Shown here piece after piece: positions 1 through 6,082 of a stretch of DNA of 64,000 bases. Source of the DNA: Candidatus Binatia bacterium (GTDB lineage: Bacteria > Desulfobacterota > Binatia > UBA9968 > CAXXLF01). Each line of letters begins with the position of its first letter. Position 1 is the stretch's first letter. The translations under genes were made by a program, and so were the position numbers. Location: positions 992,001 through 1,056,000 of the forward strand of contig CAXXLF010000002.1 of the NCBI GenBank assembly GCA_963664015.2. Reading direction: 5' to 3'. A model generated the notes under the pieces. The model saw only the letters and a list, made by a program, of their open reading frames with translations, searched no databases and was not told the DNA's origin.

Positions 1-490
1 CCTCCTGCTCGATGGGGTTCTGGGTGGCAAGCACCAGAAAGGGTTCATGCAGCGGATAGGTCTGCCCCCCGATAGTCGCCTGGCGCTCCTGCATTGATTC
101 CAGCAGCGCCGCCTGTACTTTGGCAGGGGCCCGGTTGATCTCGTCGGCAAGAATCAAGTTGGAAAAGATTGGCCCCTTCTTAATACTATAGGTACCTTCC
201 CGTGGGTTGAAGATCTCTGTACCGGTTACGTCCGCAGGCAGCATATCGGGGGTAAACTGAATGCGGGAGAATCCCGTATCGATGGCCTCGGCCAGGGAGT
301 GTACGGCCAACGTTTTAGCCAGACCCGGCACGCCTTCTAGCAGGACATGCCCTCCAGTGAGCAGTCCTATCAACAGCCGTGACAGCATGGGCTCCTGCCC
401 CACCAGCACTCGACCGACTTCATCGATGAGACTGTTGACTAAATGAGAAAATTCGGCAATCCGATCATCATTAGGTGAGGTCGAACTCAT
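1..490 (-). CDS. MoxR-family AAA+ ATPase (runs off the window edge, 3' partial)
   Basis: Not in the ORF track; translated by hand from ATG at 490 after an AGGAGG SD: ...GHVLLEGVPGLAKT (Walker A)...RIQFTPDMLPAD...ILADEINRAPAKVQAALLESMQE...ATQNPIEQE, the MoxR signature motifs. Confidence 0.93.
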   Translation of the reverse strand, partial: MSSTSPNDDRIAEFSHLVNSLIDEVGRVLVGQEPMLSRLLIGLLTGGHVLLEGVPGLAKTLAVHSLAEAIDTGFSRIQFTPDMLPADVTGTEIFNPREGTYSIKKGPIFSNLILADEINRAPAKVQAALLESMQERQATIGGQTYPLHEPFLVLATQNPIEQE

Positions 491-754
491 CTTTCCTCCT
501 CAAGGTAAAATCTGTTTCAACAATATGGGCGCAACTCAGAACGAGCACGCAATCTATCACAAAGTTGTTTTAATAATACCTAAAATAAAAACCAGAGATA
601 ACACTTTTGCTCCATCCCCCGAGTCCAAGGGCGATTGCTAGGGTTGAGCCGTCCTCCATATCATTGGGTCCGGTCACATTCGGTCGTTAGCTAGCATGGG
701 ATCGGCCCCCCATGGTTTGCACCCGCGCACAGAAAGCACCATAATATTTTTCCA

Positions 755-1534
755 ATGGACATCGTATGGTTAAAGGTTCCCGCCTGGGAAAATCTCGATG
801 GCATGATCCACGGCTTCCTGGGTCGCAAGGGAGGGAAGAGCCTCGGGCACTACTCGAGTCTAAATCTATCTGTCAGCGTGGGGGATAATCTCCAGACCGT
901 AAAGGACAACCTCTGCGATCTCAAGAAGGTCGTGGGCGCTCATGACCTCAGAATCGTGACCATGACCCAAAGGCATCAGGACCACATCGCCGAGGTCACG
1001 GACCATCGCGCAAAGAACGCCGGCGAGGCAGACGGGATGATAACCAAGGAACGAGAAATATTTCTTGGCGTGCTCACCGCCGATTGCGTCCCCATCCTGT
1101 TCGCCGCACGGTCTCAGAAGGTAACGGCGGTGGTTCACGCCGGATGGCGCGGTACCATGGCGGGACTGCCTGGCAAAATGATTCGCCACCTCGGGGAACG
1201 TTACCAGGTGAAGCCCGAGGATCTGGAAGTTGCATTGGGACCGGCTATCGGCCCGTGCTGCTATGAAATCAAAGAAGACGTTTCGAAACTTTTATTGGCC
1301 CGGTGGAAAGAAATCACTGAACAGAGCCTGCAGGAGAGGAACGGCAAACTGTTCCTTGATTTGAGAAAGCTCAGCATACTCCAATTGGACAATGTCGGTA
1401 TCCCTCACTCCAAGATTTTTACCATAGGCCCCTGTACCTCATGTGCATCCGATGATTTTTTCTCCTACCGCTGCGATTCGGATAATGGCGATCACGAGAC
1501 CGGCCGCCAGCTGAGCTTCATCGGCTGGCGGTAA
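755..1534 (+). CDS. pgeF: PgeF/YfiH-family purine nucleoside phosphorylase-like (laccase-domain) protein
   Basis: Motifs ADGMIT, LTADCVP, HAGWRG, GPAIGPCCYE and FFSYR. Confidence 0.9.
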   Translation: MDIVWLKVPAWENLDGMIHGFLGRKGGKSLGHYSSLNLSVSVGDNLQTVKDNLCDLKKVVGAHDLRIVTMTQRHQDHIAEVTDHRAKNAGEADGMITKEREIFLGVLTADCVPILFAARSQKVTAVVHAGWRGTMAGLPGKMIRHLGERYQVKPEDLEVALGPAIGPCCYEIKEDVSKLLLARWKEITEQSLQERNGKLFLDLRKLSILQLDNVGIPHSKIFTIGPCTSCASDDFFSYRCDSDNGDHETGRQLSFIGWR

Positions 1535-1598
1535 ATTCATACCAATTCACAGCGAAAGCTTGCGCCGTTCGGCTAATCCCCCTTCGATCCGAGCCTCA

Positions 1599-1639
1599 TG
1601 GTTCGAGTTTCCTCACCACCCTGAGCCTGTCGATGGGTC
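1599..1639. repeat. REP-like palindromic repeat, copy A1, nested in another TCGA-containing repeat
   Basis: tggttcgagtttcctcaccaccctgagcctgtcgatgggtc is 39/41 identical to 10100-10140 and related to the reverse complement of the cores at ~40051-40099 and ~57402-57441. Confidence 0.85.
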
Positions 1640-1790
1640 AAAGGGTCAGGGTCGAAGACATGACGTAGCCTCGACGGCCGCTTAACGCTTGGCTAGCAGT
1701 AAACCAGGACTAATTGCTGAGAAATGAGGCCTGAACCTGTCAGCCGAGCCCAAGGCCTGAGTTGAGCTTTTTCAATAAGTTGAAAAAAAG

Positions 1791-1819
1791 TTGACAACGG
1801 AAACCCCCTTTTGTAAACT
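1791..1819 (+). promoter_or_regulatory. sigma70-type promoter
   Basis: TTGACA (1791-1796), 17-bp spacer, TAAACT (1814-1819), with an A-tract upstream. Confidence 0.75.
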
Positions 1820-1847
1820 GCCCGCAGCAGAGAAAGGAGGTGGTCTA

Positions 1848-1892
1848 GTGATATATAACATAGAATTTGACTGCGAGGTGGCTGAGACTTAG
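1848..1892 (+). CDS. Putative 14-aa small peptide MIYNIEFDCEVAET
   Basis: GTG start 5 nt after an extended SD (AGAAAGGAGGTG, 1831-1842); lies between a canonical promoter and a strong terminator. Confidence 0.5.
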   Translation: MIYNIEFDCEVAET

Positions 1893-1969
1893 GCTTCTAA
1901 GCCAGTAATCCTTGTCAGGAGCTTTTTGGGATTGTGGCGTAGGAGCCTAGAATTCCAATCAGCACACCT

Positions 1970-2010
1970 AGTCCTGGCCGAATATTTATTCGGCCAGGAC
2001 TTTTTTATTT
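1970..2010 (+). terminator. Intrinsic terminator
   Basis: Perfect inverted arms agtcctggccgaata / tattcggccaggact followed by TTTTTATTT. Confidence 0.88.
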
Positions 2011-2047
2011 TATTTAACCAAGAGGTGGTTGAAATTATCCGATGGGC

Positions 2048-2653
2048 TCATTTCGCAAGGCGCTGCAGCGCGAATTCAGCCGCCCGGCGAACTTTCTCAT
2101 CGGCGTCCTGCAATAAGATGTAACGCAAAATCGTCACGGTTTCCTTACTGGCCGGTGGCTGCTCCCCGAGGGTATTGACCACGGCTACGCGAACCATGGG
2201 ATCTGCATCTTGAAGGGTCTGATGCAGCAACTGGTGGGCCACCTCCCGCTTATGATCCAAATACCGCAGGCAATAAACGCCCATCCTCTTCTGTAACGAG
2301 CTGCCGGTCAATAAGAGGTCAGTGAGTCTAGTAAATATACGATCATCGGTCTTCCCCAGGCGGCTCAATGCGACGACGGTTGCCCATCGGACATCGGCAT
2401 CTTCGCTCCCAAGGGCATCCACCAGGACTTCAAGGCCCGGCATGGACAAGACGCTGAGTTGGGCAAGGGTGTAGGCCACGGGCCAACGCCTTCCACGCTC
2501 CAGGCCTCGGAAAAGACCATTCAGAGCATTCTGGACCTCCGTCGTTTCCGCTCCCAACCTGACCAACGCATCGACCGCGGCACGCACTACCGCCTTATCC
2601 GAATGGGTAAGGGATTGCACCAGAGCGTCAATATTTTCGCTCGCTGCTTTCAT
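2048..2653 (-). CDS. HEAT-repeat protein
   Basis: Repeated L..D.D..VR.AAV.AL..LG motifs (DADVRWATVVAL, DADPMVRVAVVNTL, DADEKVRRAAEFAL). Confidence 0.85.
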   Translation of the reverse strand: MKAASENIDALVQSLTHSDKAVVRAAVDALVRLGAETTEVQNALNGLFRGLERGRRWPVAYTLAQLSVLSMPGLEVLVDALGSEDADVRWATVVALSRLGKTDDRIFTRLTDLLLTGSSLQKRMGVYCLRYLDHKREVAHQLLHQTLQDADPMVRVAVVNTLGEQPPASKETVTILRYILLQDADEKVRRAAEFALQRLAK

Positions 2654-2671
2654 ACGACAGTGGCTTATTCC

Positions 2672-3883
2672 TCAAGGGGGAGATTGACGGAATAAGGTTG
2701 AACCCCACCCTTCCTCACTATCGGCTCGCACGGTACCATGGTGCGCTTCGACAATTGTTTTGACGATAAACAGGCCCAACCCGGTTCCCTCGATGCGTTC
2801 AGAGCCCTTCAAACGACGGAATTGAGAAAAGAGGAGTGGGAGTTCTTCCTCTGCGATTCCGACACCCGTGTCTTTCACTGCGACGCACACATGATCATCT
2901 TCCAATTTGGAACTGACCGTGACCTTGCCGCCAGTGCGCGTGAACTTGATGGCATTGCCAATAAGATTCCAAACCACGCGATCCAGTTGAACCTCATCTC
3001 CCGGGACTTCGGGAAGCTCTTCATCCAGGTTCAGCTCCATCGTGAGCTTCTTACGCTGTGCTTCTGGCTCCTGAGCCCGGGCTGCCTACTGCAGCAGTCG
3101 GTTCACCTGCACCGGTCGGTGCTCCACTTGCATGTTTCGCGCTTCGGCGCGGCTTGCCTCGAGAAAACCCGTAACCAAGTTAACAATCCTGCGGGCGCCG
3201 TCTCGCATGCGCCGCCAAACTTCTTTTTCCGAGTCCCCCTCAACAGACTCCTCCAATTTGAGTTCCGCTTACCCCATGATGATTCCAAGGGGGGTTTTAA
3301 TATCGTGAACTAGTGCTGTCACCAGACCCATCTTCAACTGTCCTCGCTCCTTCGCAACTTCCGCCCGTCGCCTTTCTCGATTGGCGTTTTCCGTGAGATA
3401 CCCATAGAGGATGGAGACCCCGAACAGAAAGGTAATCCGGATAAAGACCTCACTGCCGAGGTTGGCTATGGCTGCTTTCTGGGAGAGAAGAAGCATCACG
3501 TAGACCGCGCTGATCAGGATTGAGCCGAGAACAATGCGCATCATGCTTTGCCCCAGGGCCGCAAGAAACATGGCAAATAAGTAAATCAGGAAGAAATCCC
3601 ATGAGAGGTCTTTGTTAAGATGAATCACGCTGGAGAGCAGCAAAGTGTCGCACAGCATCAGCACGGTGCCGAAATAAGGGTGATAGAAAATACGTTCGGG
3701 GATCCGGTAGAGCACCAGGACGCTAACCAGGAAGATAACCACCAGCCCGTGAACCCAGGGATCGTCGGAGACCTGCTCTCCCTTGGGAAAGAGGATGAGA
3801 AAAGAGGTTGCTATGGCAATCATCCACTGGAGGATGATTGCCGTGTATTGTTTATCGGCCATGTTGCTTTCGCCAGCCATCAA
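2672..3883 (-). pseudogene. Membrane sensor histidine kinase, disrupted
   Basis: One reading frame carries a multi-TM N-terminus, H-box LVHDIKTPL, then HATPase NLIGNAIKFT/DTGVG/GTGLGL. In-frame TAA at 3269-3271 and TAG at 3086-3088; probable extra base near 2690 (GSTLFRQSPP instead of GSTFSVNLPLEE). Confidence 0.85.
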
Positions 3884-3909
3884 TAGTGAAGGATGCCCTC
3901 AACTCTTTC

Positions 3910-4782
3910 TCATGTGGAAAGCGAGTGCGTCATCCCTTTTCCTCCCTCAGAACCCATCTTTGCCATCAGGTCCTTGAGCCGTGCCGGGTAATCGGTAACG
4001 ATTCCCCCGACACCCATACGAATCAGCTGGTCCATTTCGTGGGTATCGTTGATAGTCCATGCATGGACTTCAACTCCAAGGTCACGGGCCGCGTCCAGTG
4101 TTTCTGGTTGGATCAGTTTCATCTCGTTGTACACGCGGGGAACCTGAAGCGCGTGGCCCTGAGGCACAAATGTTTCTTTTCGCCCGCCCCATACCCACTG
4201 CATGAAGGCCTCGGCTTCACCGTAAGAGAAGCCGGTCGCAATGATCGTATTTTGGTCGCGGATCTGGCGGCGTATCTTGCCCATCACCGCATCGTTCTCG
4301 GCGCCCAGTAAAACTTGGTCGGCCTTATTCCACCGCTTGATGCAGGCAATTACATTATGAATGAAGGGGATTCGGCCCTCTTTCACATCCAAAGTCACCT
4401 TGGCCTGGGGAAAGCTCGTAAAGAACTCCTCGAGCGTTGGGATTTCTATCCTTTGACCGCGATAGGGGAAACTCATCCCCCCGTCGGAACTGAACCCATA
4501 ACCGGCGTCAAGACCCTTCAACTCGTTGAGCGGTCGGTGCCTGACCTCACCCTTCCCGTTAGTGGTTCGATCCAAGGTCTCATCATGAAAAATCAGGATC
4601 TCCCCATCCTGGGATTCCCGCAAATCGGTCTCAACAAAATCAGCGCCCTCGGCAAAAGCCCTCTCCATGGAGACCAGGGTATTCTCCGGGGTTGATCCGG
4701 AAGCCCCACGGTGCCCACCGAGCATGATTTTGTCGGTCTCAAAAAAGGAGAGCTTTACCATCCTAAGTAGCTTAAATCTCAA
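3910..4782 (-). CDS. Glycerophosphodiester phosphodiesterase
   Basis: GHRGASG...PENT...ETDLR...FHDETLDRTTNG, HAWTIND and GIVTDYP. Start codon uncertain. Confidence 0.9.
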   Translation of the reverse strand: MRFKLLRMVKLSFFETDKIMLGGHRGASGSTPENTLVSMERAFAEGADFVETDLRESQDGEILIFHDETLDRTTNGKGEVRHRPLNELKGLDAGYGFSSDGGMSFPYRGQRIEIPTLEEFFTSFPQAKVTLDVKEGRIPFIHNVIACIKRWNKADQVLLGAENDAVMGKIRRQIRDQNTIIATGFSYGEAEAFMQWVWGGRKETFVPQGHALQVPRVYNEMKLIQPETLDAARDLGVEVHAWTINDTHEMDQLIRMGVGGIVTDYPARLKDLMAKMGSEGGKGMTHSLST

Positions 4783-5926
4783 GAAATTTTGGGGCTCTGG
4801 TCAGGTTCCGGTTACCTCCACGGGTAACCAGGACCACGTCCTCCAGCCGAACCCCGCCCATACCCATATAGTATAACCCAGGTTCGACCGTCACGACATG
4901 CCCTTTGTGAAGTATCGACGGAACGCCTCCGATTCGCGGTGGCTCGTGGATATCCAACCCTAAGCCATGACCGGTTCCATGGAAAAAGCCCTGCATCCTG
5001 CCACCCATGTGACCGGTGGGGAAGCCCCTTTCCTTAAACAACTGAAGTATCTTCTGATGCACCTCGTAACCGTCGACTCCGTCCCGAATATGACGGAAGC
5101 CAAGCTCCTGTCCCTGGCGCACCGATTCATAGGCTTCCTTCAAGCGTTCCGAAGCTCTTCCTCGCACCACGGTACGGCTCAAATCCCCGAAATAACCGGT
5201 CTGTTCTGAACGAGGAAAGATATCAAATACGATAGAGGTATGGGCCCGGATGAGTCCATGACCTTCGTTGTGGGGATCACAGCACTGATTGCCCGAGGAG
5301 ATGATGGTATGGCTAGGCACCCAGCCTTGGGCCATGATCGCTGTATTGACGACCGTTTTGAGATCCTCGGAAGTCATCCGCCGGCGGTTGAAGTACAGGT
5401 AACGGTCTCTTCCGATCTTAGTTTTTCTCAAGGCATCGATTCCGGCCTCCAATCCCAACTCAGCGATTCGAATCGAGTCGCGGATTTTGGCTACCTCATG
5501 GGGGGCCTTTGTCTCCCTGTCTTCAAAGTAGGGGTCGTTTTGGATGACCACGCTGAAGCCGGCGGACCTTAACTCATCGGCAAGGAAGATAGGGAAGTTC
5601 GTGGGAACCAAGAGCGCGCGGATTCGCTTTTCCTTGAAGATCAACGTCAGGATGTCGCTAGTTGTGACCTCCCCCCCCCCCCCATGGCGGAGACGTCGCA
5701 CGTATCCAGAAAGCGATTGAACGAAATGGACCTTTGCCTCTCTTTTTGCCCGATCTACTTCAAGGTCGTTCATCACCAGATATTTCTTCCCCAGGTGCTG
5801 AAAAAATATGAATGGATCTGGCGCAAAGAAACTGGTAGCATATAGAAGGTTGGCGTCGGATTCGCTTGCCGCGAAGATCAACCTGGCCGAGGTTTTGTTC
5901 AAAATTTTTCGTGTTTGAATCATCAT
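4772..5926 (-). CDS. Xaa-Pro aminopeptidase/dipeptidase (M24B)
   Basis: Metal ligand motifs GDLSRT, HGTGHGLGLDIHE, TVEPGLY and GVRLEDVV. Confidence 0.92.
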   Translation of the reverse strand: MMIQTRKILNKTSARLIFAASESDANLLYATSFFAPDPFIFFQHLGKKYLVMNDLEVDRAKREAKVHFVQSLSGYVRRLRHGGGGEVTTSDILTLIFKEKRIRALLVPTNFPIFLADELRSAGFSVVIQNDPYFEDRETKAPHEVAKIRDSIRIAELGLEAGIDALRKTKIGRDRYLYFNRRRMTSEDLKTVVNTAIMAQGWVPSHTIISSGNQCCDPHNEGHGLIRAHTSIVFDIFPRSEQTGYFGDLSRTVVRGRASERLKEAYESVRQGQELGFRHIRDGVDGYEVHQKILQLFKERGFPTGHMGGRMQGFFHGTGHGLGLDIHEPPRIGGVPSILHKGHVVTVEPGLYYMGMGGVRLEDVVLVTRGGNRNLTRAPKFLEI

Positions 5927-6082
5927 CTTAATCGAACCTTTTATTTCGGATCCACAAGAGCGGTATTGAGCGGTGACGGGGAATTATTAGCGAATAGTGC
6001 ATGATCGGCACGAACAACTCCAAGATACCAATTTCACTGTCAATTCTCAAGGAATAAGTGCTAACCATCCATCCCTTTTTTA

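Follow-up and report, generated by a model that had tools for sequence, protein, structure and literature searches.

A conserved, probably translated small RNA gene in a Candidatus Binatia genome, distantly related to Ms_IGR-5

Near the beginning of a 64,000-nucleotide stretch of a Candidatus Binatia genome (contig CAXXLF010000002.1, positions 992,001 to 1,056,000; hereafter the window, to which all positions refer) lies a short unit that raises a simple question: is it a gene for a 14-residue peptide, the leader of another gene, or an RNA in its own right? A preliminary description, made from the sequence alone, had presented it as an unannotated RNA/micropeptide of about 180 nucleotides (nt), with a promoter, an unusually long Shine-Dalgarno (SD) sequence, a GTG-initiated open reading frame (ORF), foldable RNA and a terminator. 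The analysis presented here indicates that positions 1791-2007 hold a single-copy gene which is transcribed on its own and yields a structured small RNA (sRNA) of ~180 nt. The listed features of the unit are not due to chance, and it is very probably a conserved, translated small RNA related to the Ms_IGR-5 family (Rfam RF02471). Thus, the stand-alone small RNA gene with its conserved mini-ORF has stood, whereas the functional micropeptide has not, since the peptide is not conserved. The overall reading that we favor, with somewhat better than even confidence, is that of a structured small RNA gene of the Ms_IGR-5 type, working as a translation-gated switch that does not act via its peptide.

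The case for an independent gene begins with the signals found at its two ends (Table 1). The predicted promoter, TTGACA and TAAACT separated by 17 nt, is indeed present and is identical to the consensus at 10 of 12 positions; a promoter scan of positions 1400-2800 returned two promoter-like sites against 0.8 expected. A promoter-like site is found at the same place in all 30 relatives from the window's order, with the -10 element ending 12-14 nt 5′ of GAAAGG. At the opposite end, the strong terminator that had been described corresponds to a 14-bp stem followed by a T-run. A hairpin with a T-run was detected by script in 25 of 29 relatives, and the remaining four are script artefacts whose terminator is visible in the alignment (a first script, which chose over-long folds and flagged 16 of the 29, was replaced by the one used here). 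The predicted transcript start at A1826 is based on the position of the -10 box and on where the Rfam match begins, and the predicted end on the terminator T-run. Among listed RNA sequencing runs, none contains positions 1700-2100 of the window, and in the runs on offer the sampled words were almost absent. The resulting 183-nt RNA has a computed folding energy of -77.3 kcal/mol, compared with -48.6 +/- 4.1 kcal/mol in 200 shuffled versions (z = -6.9), none of which folds as well.

The relationship with Ms_IGR-5 comes from an Rfam scan of window positions 1-6000 at a permissive threshold. The sole relevant match was to this family, with model positions 1-184 aligned to 1826-2008 (E = 0.0096 for the 6 kb and all families; E = 0.0013 for the whole genome and this family alone), while the other six rows, at E = 0.3-9, were judged to be chance matches. 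The unit is also the best RF02471 match in the whole genome. At 25.1 bits against a gathering score of 45, the match is full-length, although below the level of a confident hit. A graded series of RF02471 scores leads from the actinobacterial members to the window: 179.4 bits in Mycobacterium, 97.9 in Nocardiopsis, 87.3 in Propionibacteriaceae, 37.7 in an AT-rich metagenome-assembled genome (MAG), 32.7 in a Terriglobales MAG and 25.1 here. At E ≤ 0.1, the same model gave no match in the Rokubacteria, Nitrospiria, Leptospira and Terriglobia examples. The conserved blocks of RF02471 (AAGGAGGUGGUC, GAGGUGGCUG, GAAUUCC..CAG.CACC and the terminator) appear in order in the window. Moreover, both RNAs are stand-alone units with their own terminator, in which a leader, AAGGAGGUGGUC, a short ORF, UGYGAGGUGGCUG, a helix containing the stop codon, RAAUUCC..CAG.CACC and the terminator follow one another. 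As the match is full-length and intermediate relatives bridge the gap in score, the unit is considered to be related to Ms_IGR-5: as judged from its sequence, it is a distant, non-actinobacterial relative of this uncharacterized small RNA that falls below the Rfam threshold. Consequently, the unit is not unannotated as a kind, contrary to what the preliminary description proposed.

The two RNAs nevertheless differ in several respects. Ms_IGR-5 is actinobacterial, whereas the window's host and its nearest relatives (Candidatus Binatia, Deltaproteobacteria and Syntrophobacter(ales)) are not. The leader helix of the window, P0 (GCAG with CUGY), is one base out of register relative to the actinobacterial pairing; the closing helix, A, has a bulge, unlike that of Ms_IGR-5; and the sequence of the inner domain is unrelated. 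In addition, in the consensus structure that Rfam gives for Ms_IGR-5, the SD is paired with GCUGCC and the CACC strand is single-stranded, whereas the covariation described below favors helix A and P0. The mycobacterial RNA is expressed. One report places M. smegmatis IGR-5 between MSMEG_5794 and MSMEG_5795 and describes it as uncharacterized and NAD-capped (bioRxiv 10.1101/2021.12.14.472595), and it appears as ncMSMEG15794c in a second source (PMC10454040). Expression of Rfam matches to Ms_IGR-5 has also been reported for Streptomyces lividans and S. avermitilis (PMC8079986, PMC8780764). No function has been assigned to the family in the searchable literature.

Comparison of relatives strongly supports the RNA structure. 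For the window's order, 36 distinct sequences (alignment A2) were examined with hand-defined helices, namely P0, A, B and either an inner hairpin or a pseudoknot. In this alignment 89.5% of the cells are paired, compared with 44-51% when the partners are slid by one column, and 38 cells show changes on both sides of a pair against 16.5 +/- 4.0 in shuffles. Across phyla, a covariance model (R1) was built from an alignment of 45 sequences (A1) with P0, a candidate helix P1, A and B. It matched 98 of the 100 loci given to it (out of ~150), the two misses being chance pattern hits, and it scores the window at 66 bits (E = 5e-13) and mycobacteria at 104-116 bits. The alignment that resulted from these matches has 80.6% of its cells paired versus 20-48% when slid, and 137 double-change cells versus 56.6 +/- 5.2. 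In neither the order-level nor the cross-phylum case did any of 500 shuffles reach the observed value.

Each of the three main helices contributes to this signal. P0 is paired in 100% of the cells in the 36 order-level relatives, with G-C/G.U variation; in actinobacterial relatives it covaries through seven 4-mers (CACA/UGUG, CCAG/CUGG, CGAG/CUCG, CUUC/GAAG, CACG/CGUG, CGUG/CACG and CCAC/GUGG), and complementarity is kept in 19 of 20 Actinomycetota. Helix A coincides exactly with the closing stem of the preliminary description, bulged A1964 included, and changes on both sides at 6 of its 10 pairs across phyla, as illustrated by the strand pairs GGUGGCUGCG/CGCAGCCACC, GGUGGCUACG/CGUAGCCACC, GGUGUCCGUC/GACGGACACC, GGUGACCAUC/GGUGGUCACC and GGUGACUUUC/GGAAGUCACC. 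Helix B, which is part of the minimum-energy fold, has 13 pairs with 89.1% of the cells paired and double changes at 4 of them in the 36 relatives. The covariation therein supports the leader helix P0, the closing helix A and the stop-codon helix B as predicted elements of the RNA. Inside the closing stem, the preliminary fold needs one correction: in place of the local cttag/ctaag hairpin, covariation prefers the long-range helix B, and tgggatt/aattcca becomes a possible pseudoknot. The latter, in which GGGAUU would pair with the unpaired AAUUCC, has 80.3% of the cells paired and double changes at three pairs, and it is not separable from an inner hairpin (C) with 81.0%. The motif itself, in the form RAAU(U/C)CC, is present in most lineages, while the inner-stem region varies in both length and sequence among lineages. 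RNAalifold, run on MAFFT alignments, recovered the helices only in part, because the bulge shifts the register between lineages.

The 3′ CACC strand of helix A resembles the anti-Shine-Dalgarno (anti-SD) of 16S ribosomal RNA (rRNA), and it had been proposed to pair with either the real SD or the internal GAGGUG as a fold-back switch. In the window its computed pairing with the internal GAGGUG amounts to -16.0 kcal/mol, versus -8.4 kcal/mol with the SD. Covariation backs the former pairing only, and folding back onto the true SD is thus a possible alternative conformation according to the energy calculation.

The mini-ORF runs through these same helices, which brings up the question of whether it is translated, and for what. 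The GTG ORF described at 1848-1892 is present, and its geometry is conserved: of the 174 family members examined, 173 have a start codon in frame, a length of 10-19 codons and a stop codon 9 nt 3′ of GAGGTG. An in-frame start occurs in 141 of 146 loci obtained by pattern or BLAST, the other five being four chance hits and the locus L076. Among 134 unique sequences, the ORF always ends exactly three codons after GAGGTG, with TAG (123) far ahead of TGA (6) and TAA (5), and begins with TTG (58), ATG (54) or GTG (22); the two other frames offer a start codon in only 10 and 65 of these sequences. The 30 order-level loci (the window's own included) have an ATG or GTG start and an ORF of 12-14 codons, in which all insertions and deletions are multiples of three. 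A less biased sample of 40 R1 matches was fetched from whole genomes, avoiding those flagged as unpublished; the phylum of a Mycobacterium genome contributed 20 of them, that of a Rokubacteria genome 17 and further orders of the window's class 3. Each of the 40 has an ORF of 10-15 codons, 38 found by script and two (L185 and L193) by inspection, and in 39 the stop lies 9 nt after GAGGTG; in L171 the distance is 8 nt and GAGGUG is read in another frame. The internal GAGGUG (SD2) is invariant in the BLAST relatives and is read in the same frame in those 39 of 40 covariance-model relatives. Taking all this into account, the mini-ORF is probably translated.

It could then be argued that the 14-residue acidic peptide is the product and that RNA structure only tunes its expression. 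A conserved ORF behind the strongest SD of the genome is what such a micropeptide gene would look like, and within the window's order the peptides share the pattern M-x-[DNE]-x-C-x(1,2)-x-C-E-V-[ATP]-[EG]-T. The amino acids, however, follow the RNA. Outside the order, the 'Cys' position may hold R, L, E, H or G in place of C, with a codon that covaries with the 5′ leader 4-mer of P0; two positions before it, 87 of the 134 sequences have W, R or G, each encoded by an NGG codon; the last three residues vary together with helix A; and the L171 copy decodes GAGGUG in a different frame altogether. Even between the window's peptide and those of its relatives, the number of cysteines differs (one versus two). 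Since the residues covary with P0 and helix A, selection appears to preserve the presence of a start codon, a frame that stays open across P0 and helix A and a stop codon located in the first turn of helix B, and not the amino-acid sequence. The peptide itself is thus, on the alignments, not conserved, its apparently conserved residues being dictated by RNA pairing. A micropeptide gene is accordingly very unlikely in our assessment. The family peptide motifs WTCEVAA, TCEVAAR, TCEVAAS and CEVAET found no mention in the searchable literature. A type I toxin-antitoxin system was considered as well and rejected: in agreement with the preliminary description, the peptide is acidic (four acidic residues, no basic ones) and not of the hydrophobic or membrane kind, and the promoter scan showed no antisense promoter at the unit.

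The other outstanding feature of the unit is its SD sequence (SD1), for which an exceptionally long match to the anti-SD had been claimed. The 3′ end of the host genome's own 16S rRNA reads ..GGAUCACCUCCUUUCU, and SD1 is complementary to all 16 terminal bases, with two G.U pairs and a computed energy of -26.1 kcal/mol. In the 3.5-Mb genome, a 13-nt version of it, AAAGGAGGTGRTC, has just two occurrences, namely SD1 itself and the antisense of the 16S gene end. The SD1 core GAAAGGAGGTGGTC shows no variation among all 30 relatives from BLAST, and in the covariance-model relatives this part reads GGUGGUC or GGUGAUC, both complementary to the 16S tail. The start codon lies 7 nt 3′ of the GGAGG in SD1. 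Placement of a start codon in the P site requires a spacing of 5-9 nt. Measured against this rule, the full SD1 duplex, after which a single base is left, is too short-spaced for P-site placement of the start. For this reason, SD1 may have to melt partly for initiation, or its 3′ part (GGUCU) may serve RNA-RNA pairing.

These same properties allow a reading in which no productive translation takes place. SD1 would then serve only as a decoy or sponge for 30S subunits, binding the 16S tail or a different RNA, or the C-rich 3′ strand would target the SDs of messenger RNAs. The strongly supported RNA structure and the unconserved peptide agree with a purely non-coding RNA, Rfam classes the Ms_IGR-5 family as an sRNA, and a 16-bp duplex ending 1 nt before the start should presumably hinder the move into elongation. 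On the other hand, 173 of 174 members retain the start, the frame and the stop even though the codons change, and ORF insertions and deletions come in multiples of three. Furthermore, the Ms_IGR-5 homologues of M. abscessus and M. smegmatis are reported to have significant ribosomal reads (PMC4974804). On balance, a non-coding RNA with an idle ORF seems unlikely to us, though far from negligible.

The anatomy of the unit suggests instead how translation itself could be put to use. The extreme 5′ end of the RNA pairs just before the internal GAGGUG to form P0, and SD1 and the start codon follow inside the P0 loop; the ORF then crosses P0 and the 5′ strand of helix A and stops in the first turn of helix B, after which comes the terminator. 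In the proposed mechanism, SD1 would dock the 30S subunit very tightly, and translation of the mini-ORF would unzip P0 and A; at the stop codon, the ribosome would also open B. The anti-SD of the terminating ribosome would now face the internal GAGGUG, 6 nt before the P-site codon, a spacing like that of initiation. Because GAGGUG would be spaced as in an initiation complex, the terminating ribosome could be held at the stop. A ribosome held in this manner would free the anti-SD-like 3′ CACC strand and the AAUUCC motif, so that the RNA would toggle between a closed, untranslated form and an open, translated one. Such a translation-gated RNA switch is a tentative proposal, which we rate as plausible but below an even chance. 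On this reading, the RNA would act as a sensor or regulator linked to the availability of ribosomes. The ribosome-binding or ribosome-sensing role envisaged in the preliminary description is retained in this form, as the best reading of the anatomy.

Parallels to individual parts of this scheme exist among known regulators. Dual-function (coding) sRNAs, such as SgrS/SgrT, RNAIII/hld and SR1/SR1P, are likewise small, independently transcribed, structured and equipped with a short ORF and a ribosome-binding site. They differ in having a conserved functional peptide and an ORF separate from the base-pairing seed, whereas here the peptide is unconserved and the ORF runs through the conserved helices. 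In leader-peptide attenuators, among which rnTrpL/peTrpL is known as a trans-acting attenuator sRNA, translation of a short ORF also competes with helices located just 5′ of an intrinsic terminator, and a short transcript is released; unlike them, the unit lacks downstream structural genes, a run of regulatory codons and a conserved neighborhood. The autoregulatory site of prfB, which encodes release factor (RF) 2, carries an internal SD-like element upstream of a stop codon. A possible parallel is that in both cases such an element (GAGGUG in the unit) stands at a fixed short distance before a stop read by a single release factor. The distance to the last sense codon is 6 nt in the unit and not the 3 nt of prfB, and the unit has neither a slippery codon nor a downstream frame for a shift.

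Several points weigh against the favored reading of a translation-gated small RNA. Docking, unzipping, the holding of the ribosome at its stop codon and a possible output are each deduced from the anatomy. The match to Ms_IGR-5 falls short of the gathering score, and the full 16-bp SD1 duplex leaves one base before the GUG start. The candidate helix P1 (GUCC with GGAC) is paired in 69-80% of the cells with almost no double changes, and the pseudoknot shows little covariation. The preference for TAG (123 of 134) could be purely structural. As for sampling, the sequences of the cross-phylum seed had to match an exact 21-base pattern, which forced the invariance of SD1 and GAGGUG in that set, and the covariance-model sample, although less biased than the pattern seed, depends on it.

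Going one step further, the RNA might be envisaged as a widespread and ancient sensor of ribosome status. The 16-nt SD would capture free 30S subunits, a single round of translation would open the fold, and GAGGUG would hold the ribosome at a stop that is almost always UAG, the codon read by RF1. We regard this extension as speculative and improbable as it stands. If it were true, the fraction of open RNA would report on free-ribosome, release-factor or recycling capacity, and the freed CACC and AAUUCC strands would relay the signal either in cis to SD1 or in trans to other targets. The RNA would then represent a new class of riboregulators that signal by being translated, independently of the peptide. 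Apart from this possibility, the present results add to the Rfam entry in four ways: the family extends well outside the actinobacteria, the printed consensus structure misses the covarying helices P0 and A, the geometry of the reading frame, with its stop 9 nt after an internal SD-like element, is conserved, and the peptide is not. A gene that would be selected for being translated and not for its product, and that has the strongest ribosome-binding site of its genome, is a clear candidate for a translation-state regulator. The homologue in M. smegmatis makes this idea directly testable.

The family has a broad but patchy distribution. A DNA search of the window's order found the unit in 56 of 61 genomes (the window's genome, G000, included) at E ≤ 1.2e-4, in line with the similar deltaproteobacterial units that the preliminary description mentioned; at E ≤ 1 the number rises to 58 of 61, two of these being short chance matches. 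A scan of a genome collection with the exact pattern AAGGAGGTGGTC, 12-42 bases and TGYGAGGTG gave at least 118 stretches, four of which are chance hits inside long ORFs. Among the pattern matches listed are Mycobacterium, Gordonia, Nocardiopsis, Saccharopolyspora and Propionibacteriaceae; Candidatus Binatia, 'Deltaproteobacteria', Syntrophobacter(ales) and Rokubacteria; as well as Terriglobales/Terriglobia, Nitrospiria, a Leptospira and some AT-rich MAGs. The same pattern had no match in a viral contig collection. R1 finds one copy in the window's genome and, among 151 sampled genomes of its phylum, four carriers, namely G000 and three of the four genomes from other orders of its class; none of the 146 genomes from other classes of the phylum has a match. 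R1 has a match in 73 of 151 genomes sampled from the phylum of a Mycobacterium genome, and the family is near-universal in the phylum of the Rokubacteria genome (88 of 101), with one copy in each carrier of both phyla except G236. In the phylum of the Nitrospiria MAG, the only positive out of 101 genomes is that MAG itself. Genomes flagged as unpublished contribute one row to alignments A1 and A3 and the 32.7-bit score (all from L042/G212), along with 6 of the 73 and 2 of the 88 positives, and no conclusion rests on them alone.

The genomic surroundings bear on a last alternative, in which the unit would be a device acting in cis: either a leader-peptide attenuator whose read-through would run antisense into the convergent gene, or a 3′ element of the upstream gene. 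The upstream neighbor is a Cu-oxidase_4 (yfiH-type) gene (755-1534) on the same strand as the unit, and the downstream one is a convergent gene for a HEAT-repeat protein (2048-2653). A short ORF, competing helices and a terminator do resemble an attenuator, and throughout the window's order the unit has these two genes as its neighbors. No gene downstream is co-oriented with it, however, so that the unit is not a simple leader, as had been noted from the beginning; it has its own conserved promoter, and its peptide is without a repeated regulatory codon. In genus g5 (L025, L027, L032 and L033) the unit is inverted between those two flanking genes with respect to L004 and the other order-level loci, and between phyla the neighbors differ completely, with none conserved. 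We therefore consider a cis-acting device to be highly improbable. The lack of a conserved neighbor across phyla fits a product that would act in trans.

Table 1. Elements of the small RNA gene and their positions in the window
Feature	Position	Strand	Details
Sigma-70-type promoter	1791..1819	+	TTGACA 1791-1796, 17-nt spacer, TAAACT 1814-1819
Predicted transcript, ~180 nt	1826..2007	+	Both ends inferred
P0, 5′ strand GCAG	1827..1830	+	Pairs with 1871-1874
SD1, 16-nt complement of the 16S rRNA 3′ tail	1831..1846	+	DNA AGAAAGGAGGTGGTCT, RNA AGAAAGGAGGUGGUCU
Mini-ORF	1848..1892	+	GTG 1848, 14 codons, TAG 1890-1892, peptide MIYNIEFDCEVAET
P0, 3′ strand CUGC, includes the 'Cys' codon	1871..1874	+	Pairs with 1827-1830
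SD2, internal GAGGUG (Glu-Val codons)	1875..1880	+	Last sense codon 6 nt and stop codon 9 nt downstream
Helix A, 5′ strand GGUGGCUGA	1877..1885	+	Pairs with 1959-1968, A1964 bulged
Helix B, 5′ strand UUAGGCUUCUA, contains the stop codon	1889..1899	+	Pairs with 1940-1950
Variable inner stems	1901..1938	+	1901-1904/1935-1938 and 1906-1912/1928-1934; minimum-energy fold only
Helix B, 3′ strand UAGGAGCCUAG	1940..1950	+	Pairs with 1889-1899
Unpaired AAUUCC motif between helices B and A	1951..1956	+	Candidate pseudoknot partner of GGGAUU 1928-1933
Helix A, 3′ strand UCAGC-A-CACC, anti-SD-like	1959..1968	+	Pairs with 1877-1885
Intrinsic terminator	1970..2007	+	14-bp stem 1970-2001, then T-run

Some additional observations concern individual copies and the sequence around the unit. 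Upstream of it, the 256 nt between the stop codon of the yfiH-type gene and the promoter (1535-1790) contain neither an ORF of at least 60 amino acids nor an Rfam match at E ≤ 10. An RNA resembling transfer RNA (tRNA) or transfer-messenger RNA (tmRNA) was considered and rejected, as ARAGORN reported 0 genes in 1500-2300. At L042 (G212), a tmRNA gene (1024-1385, minus strand) lies ~3 kb upstream of the copy and a tRNA gene (4832-4903, plus strand) ~200 nt downstream, a proximity not seen in the other loci examined. G236, with its two R1 matches (C17:3900-4026 and C126:9334-9460), is the sole two-copy genome among the 252 sampled in the Mycobacterium and Rokubacteria phyla. In the mycobacterial-type copy L137, a stretch of ~40 nt occurs twice in tandem inside the variable region, which implies that the inner domain tolerates large insertions.

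Three copies from other orders of the window's class (L191-L193) are closer to the Rokubacteria type than to that of the window's order, with the SD GGUGAUCC, a frame ending in ..V-I/T-C-E-V-x-x-S and the helix A strand GGUGGUG.CC; this likeness hints at a transfer between soil lineages or at an old split. The copy in an uncultured Gammaproteobacteria MAG (L087) is of the mycobacterial type, with an R1 score of 106 bits and a peptide of the Mycobacterium kind, and its contig is probably mis-binned or contaminating. Finally, at L066 (3720-3830), plant and animal microRNA-precursor models match both strands well below their thresholds, and this segment is probably a long perfect hairpin or an inverted repeat.

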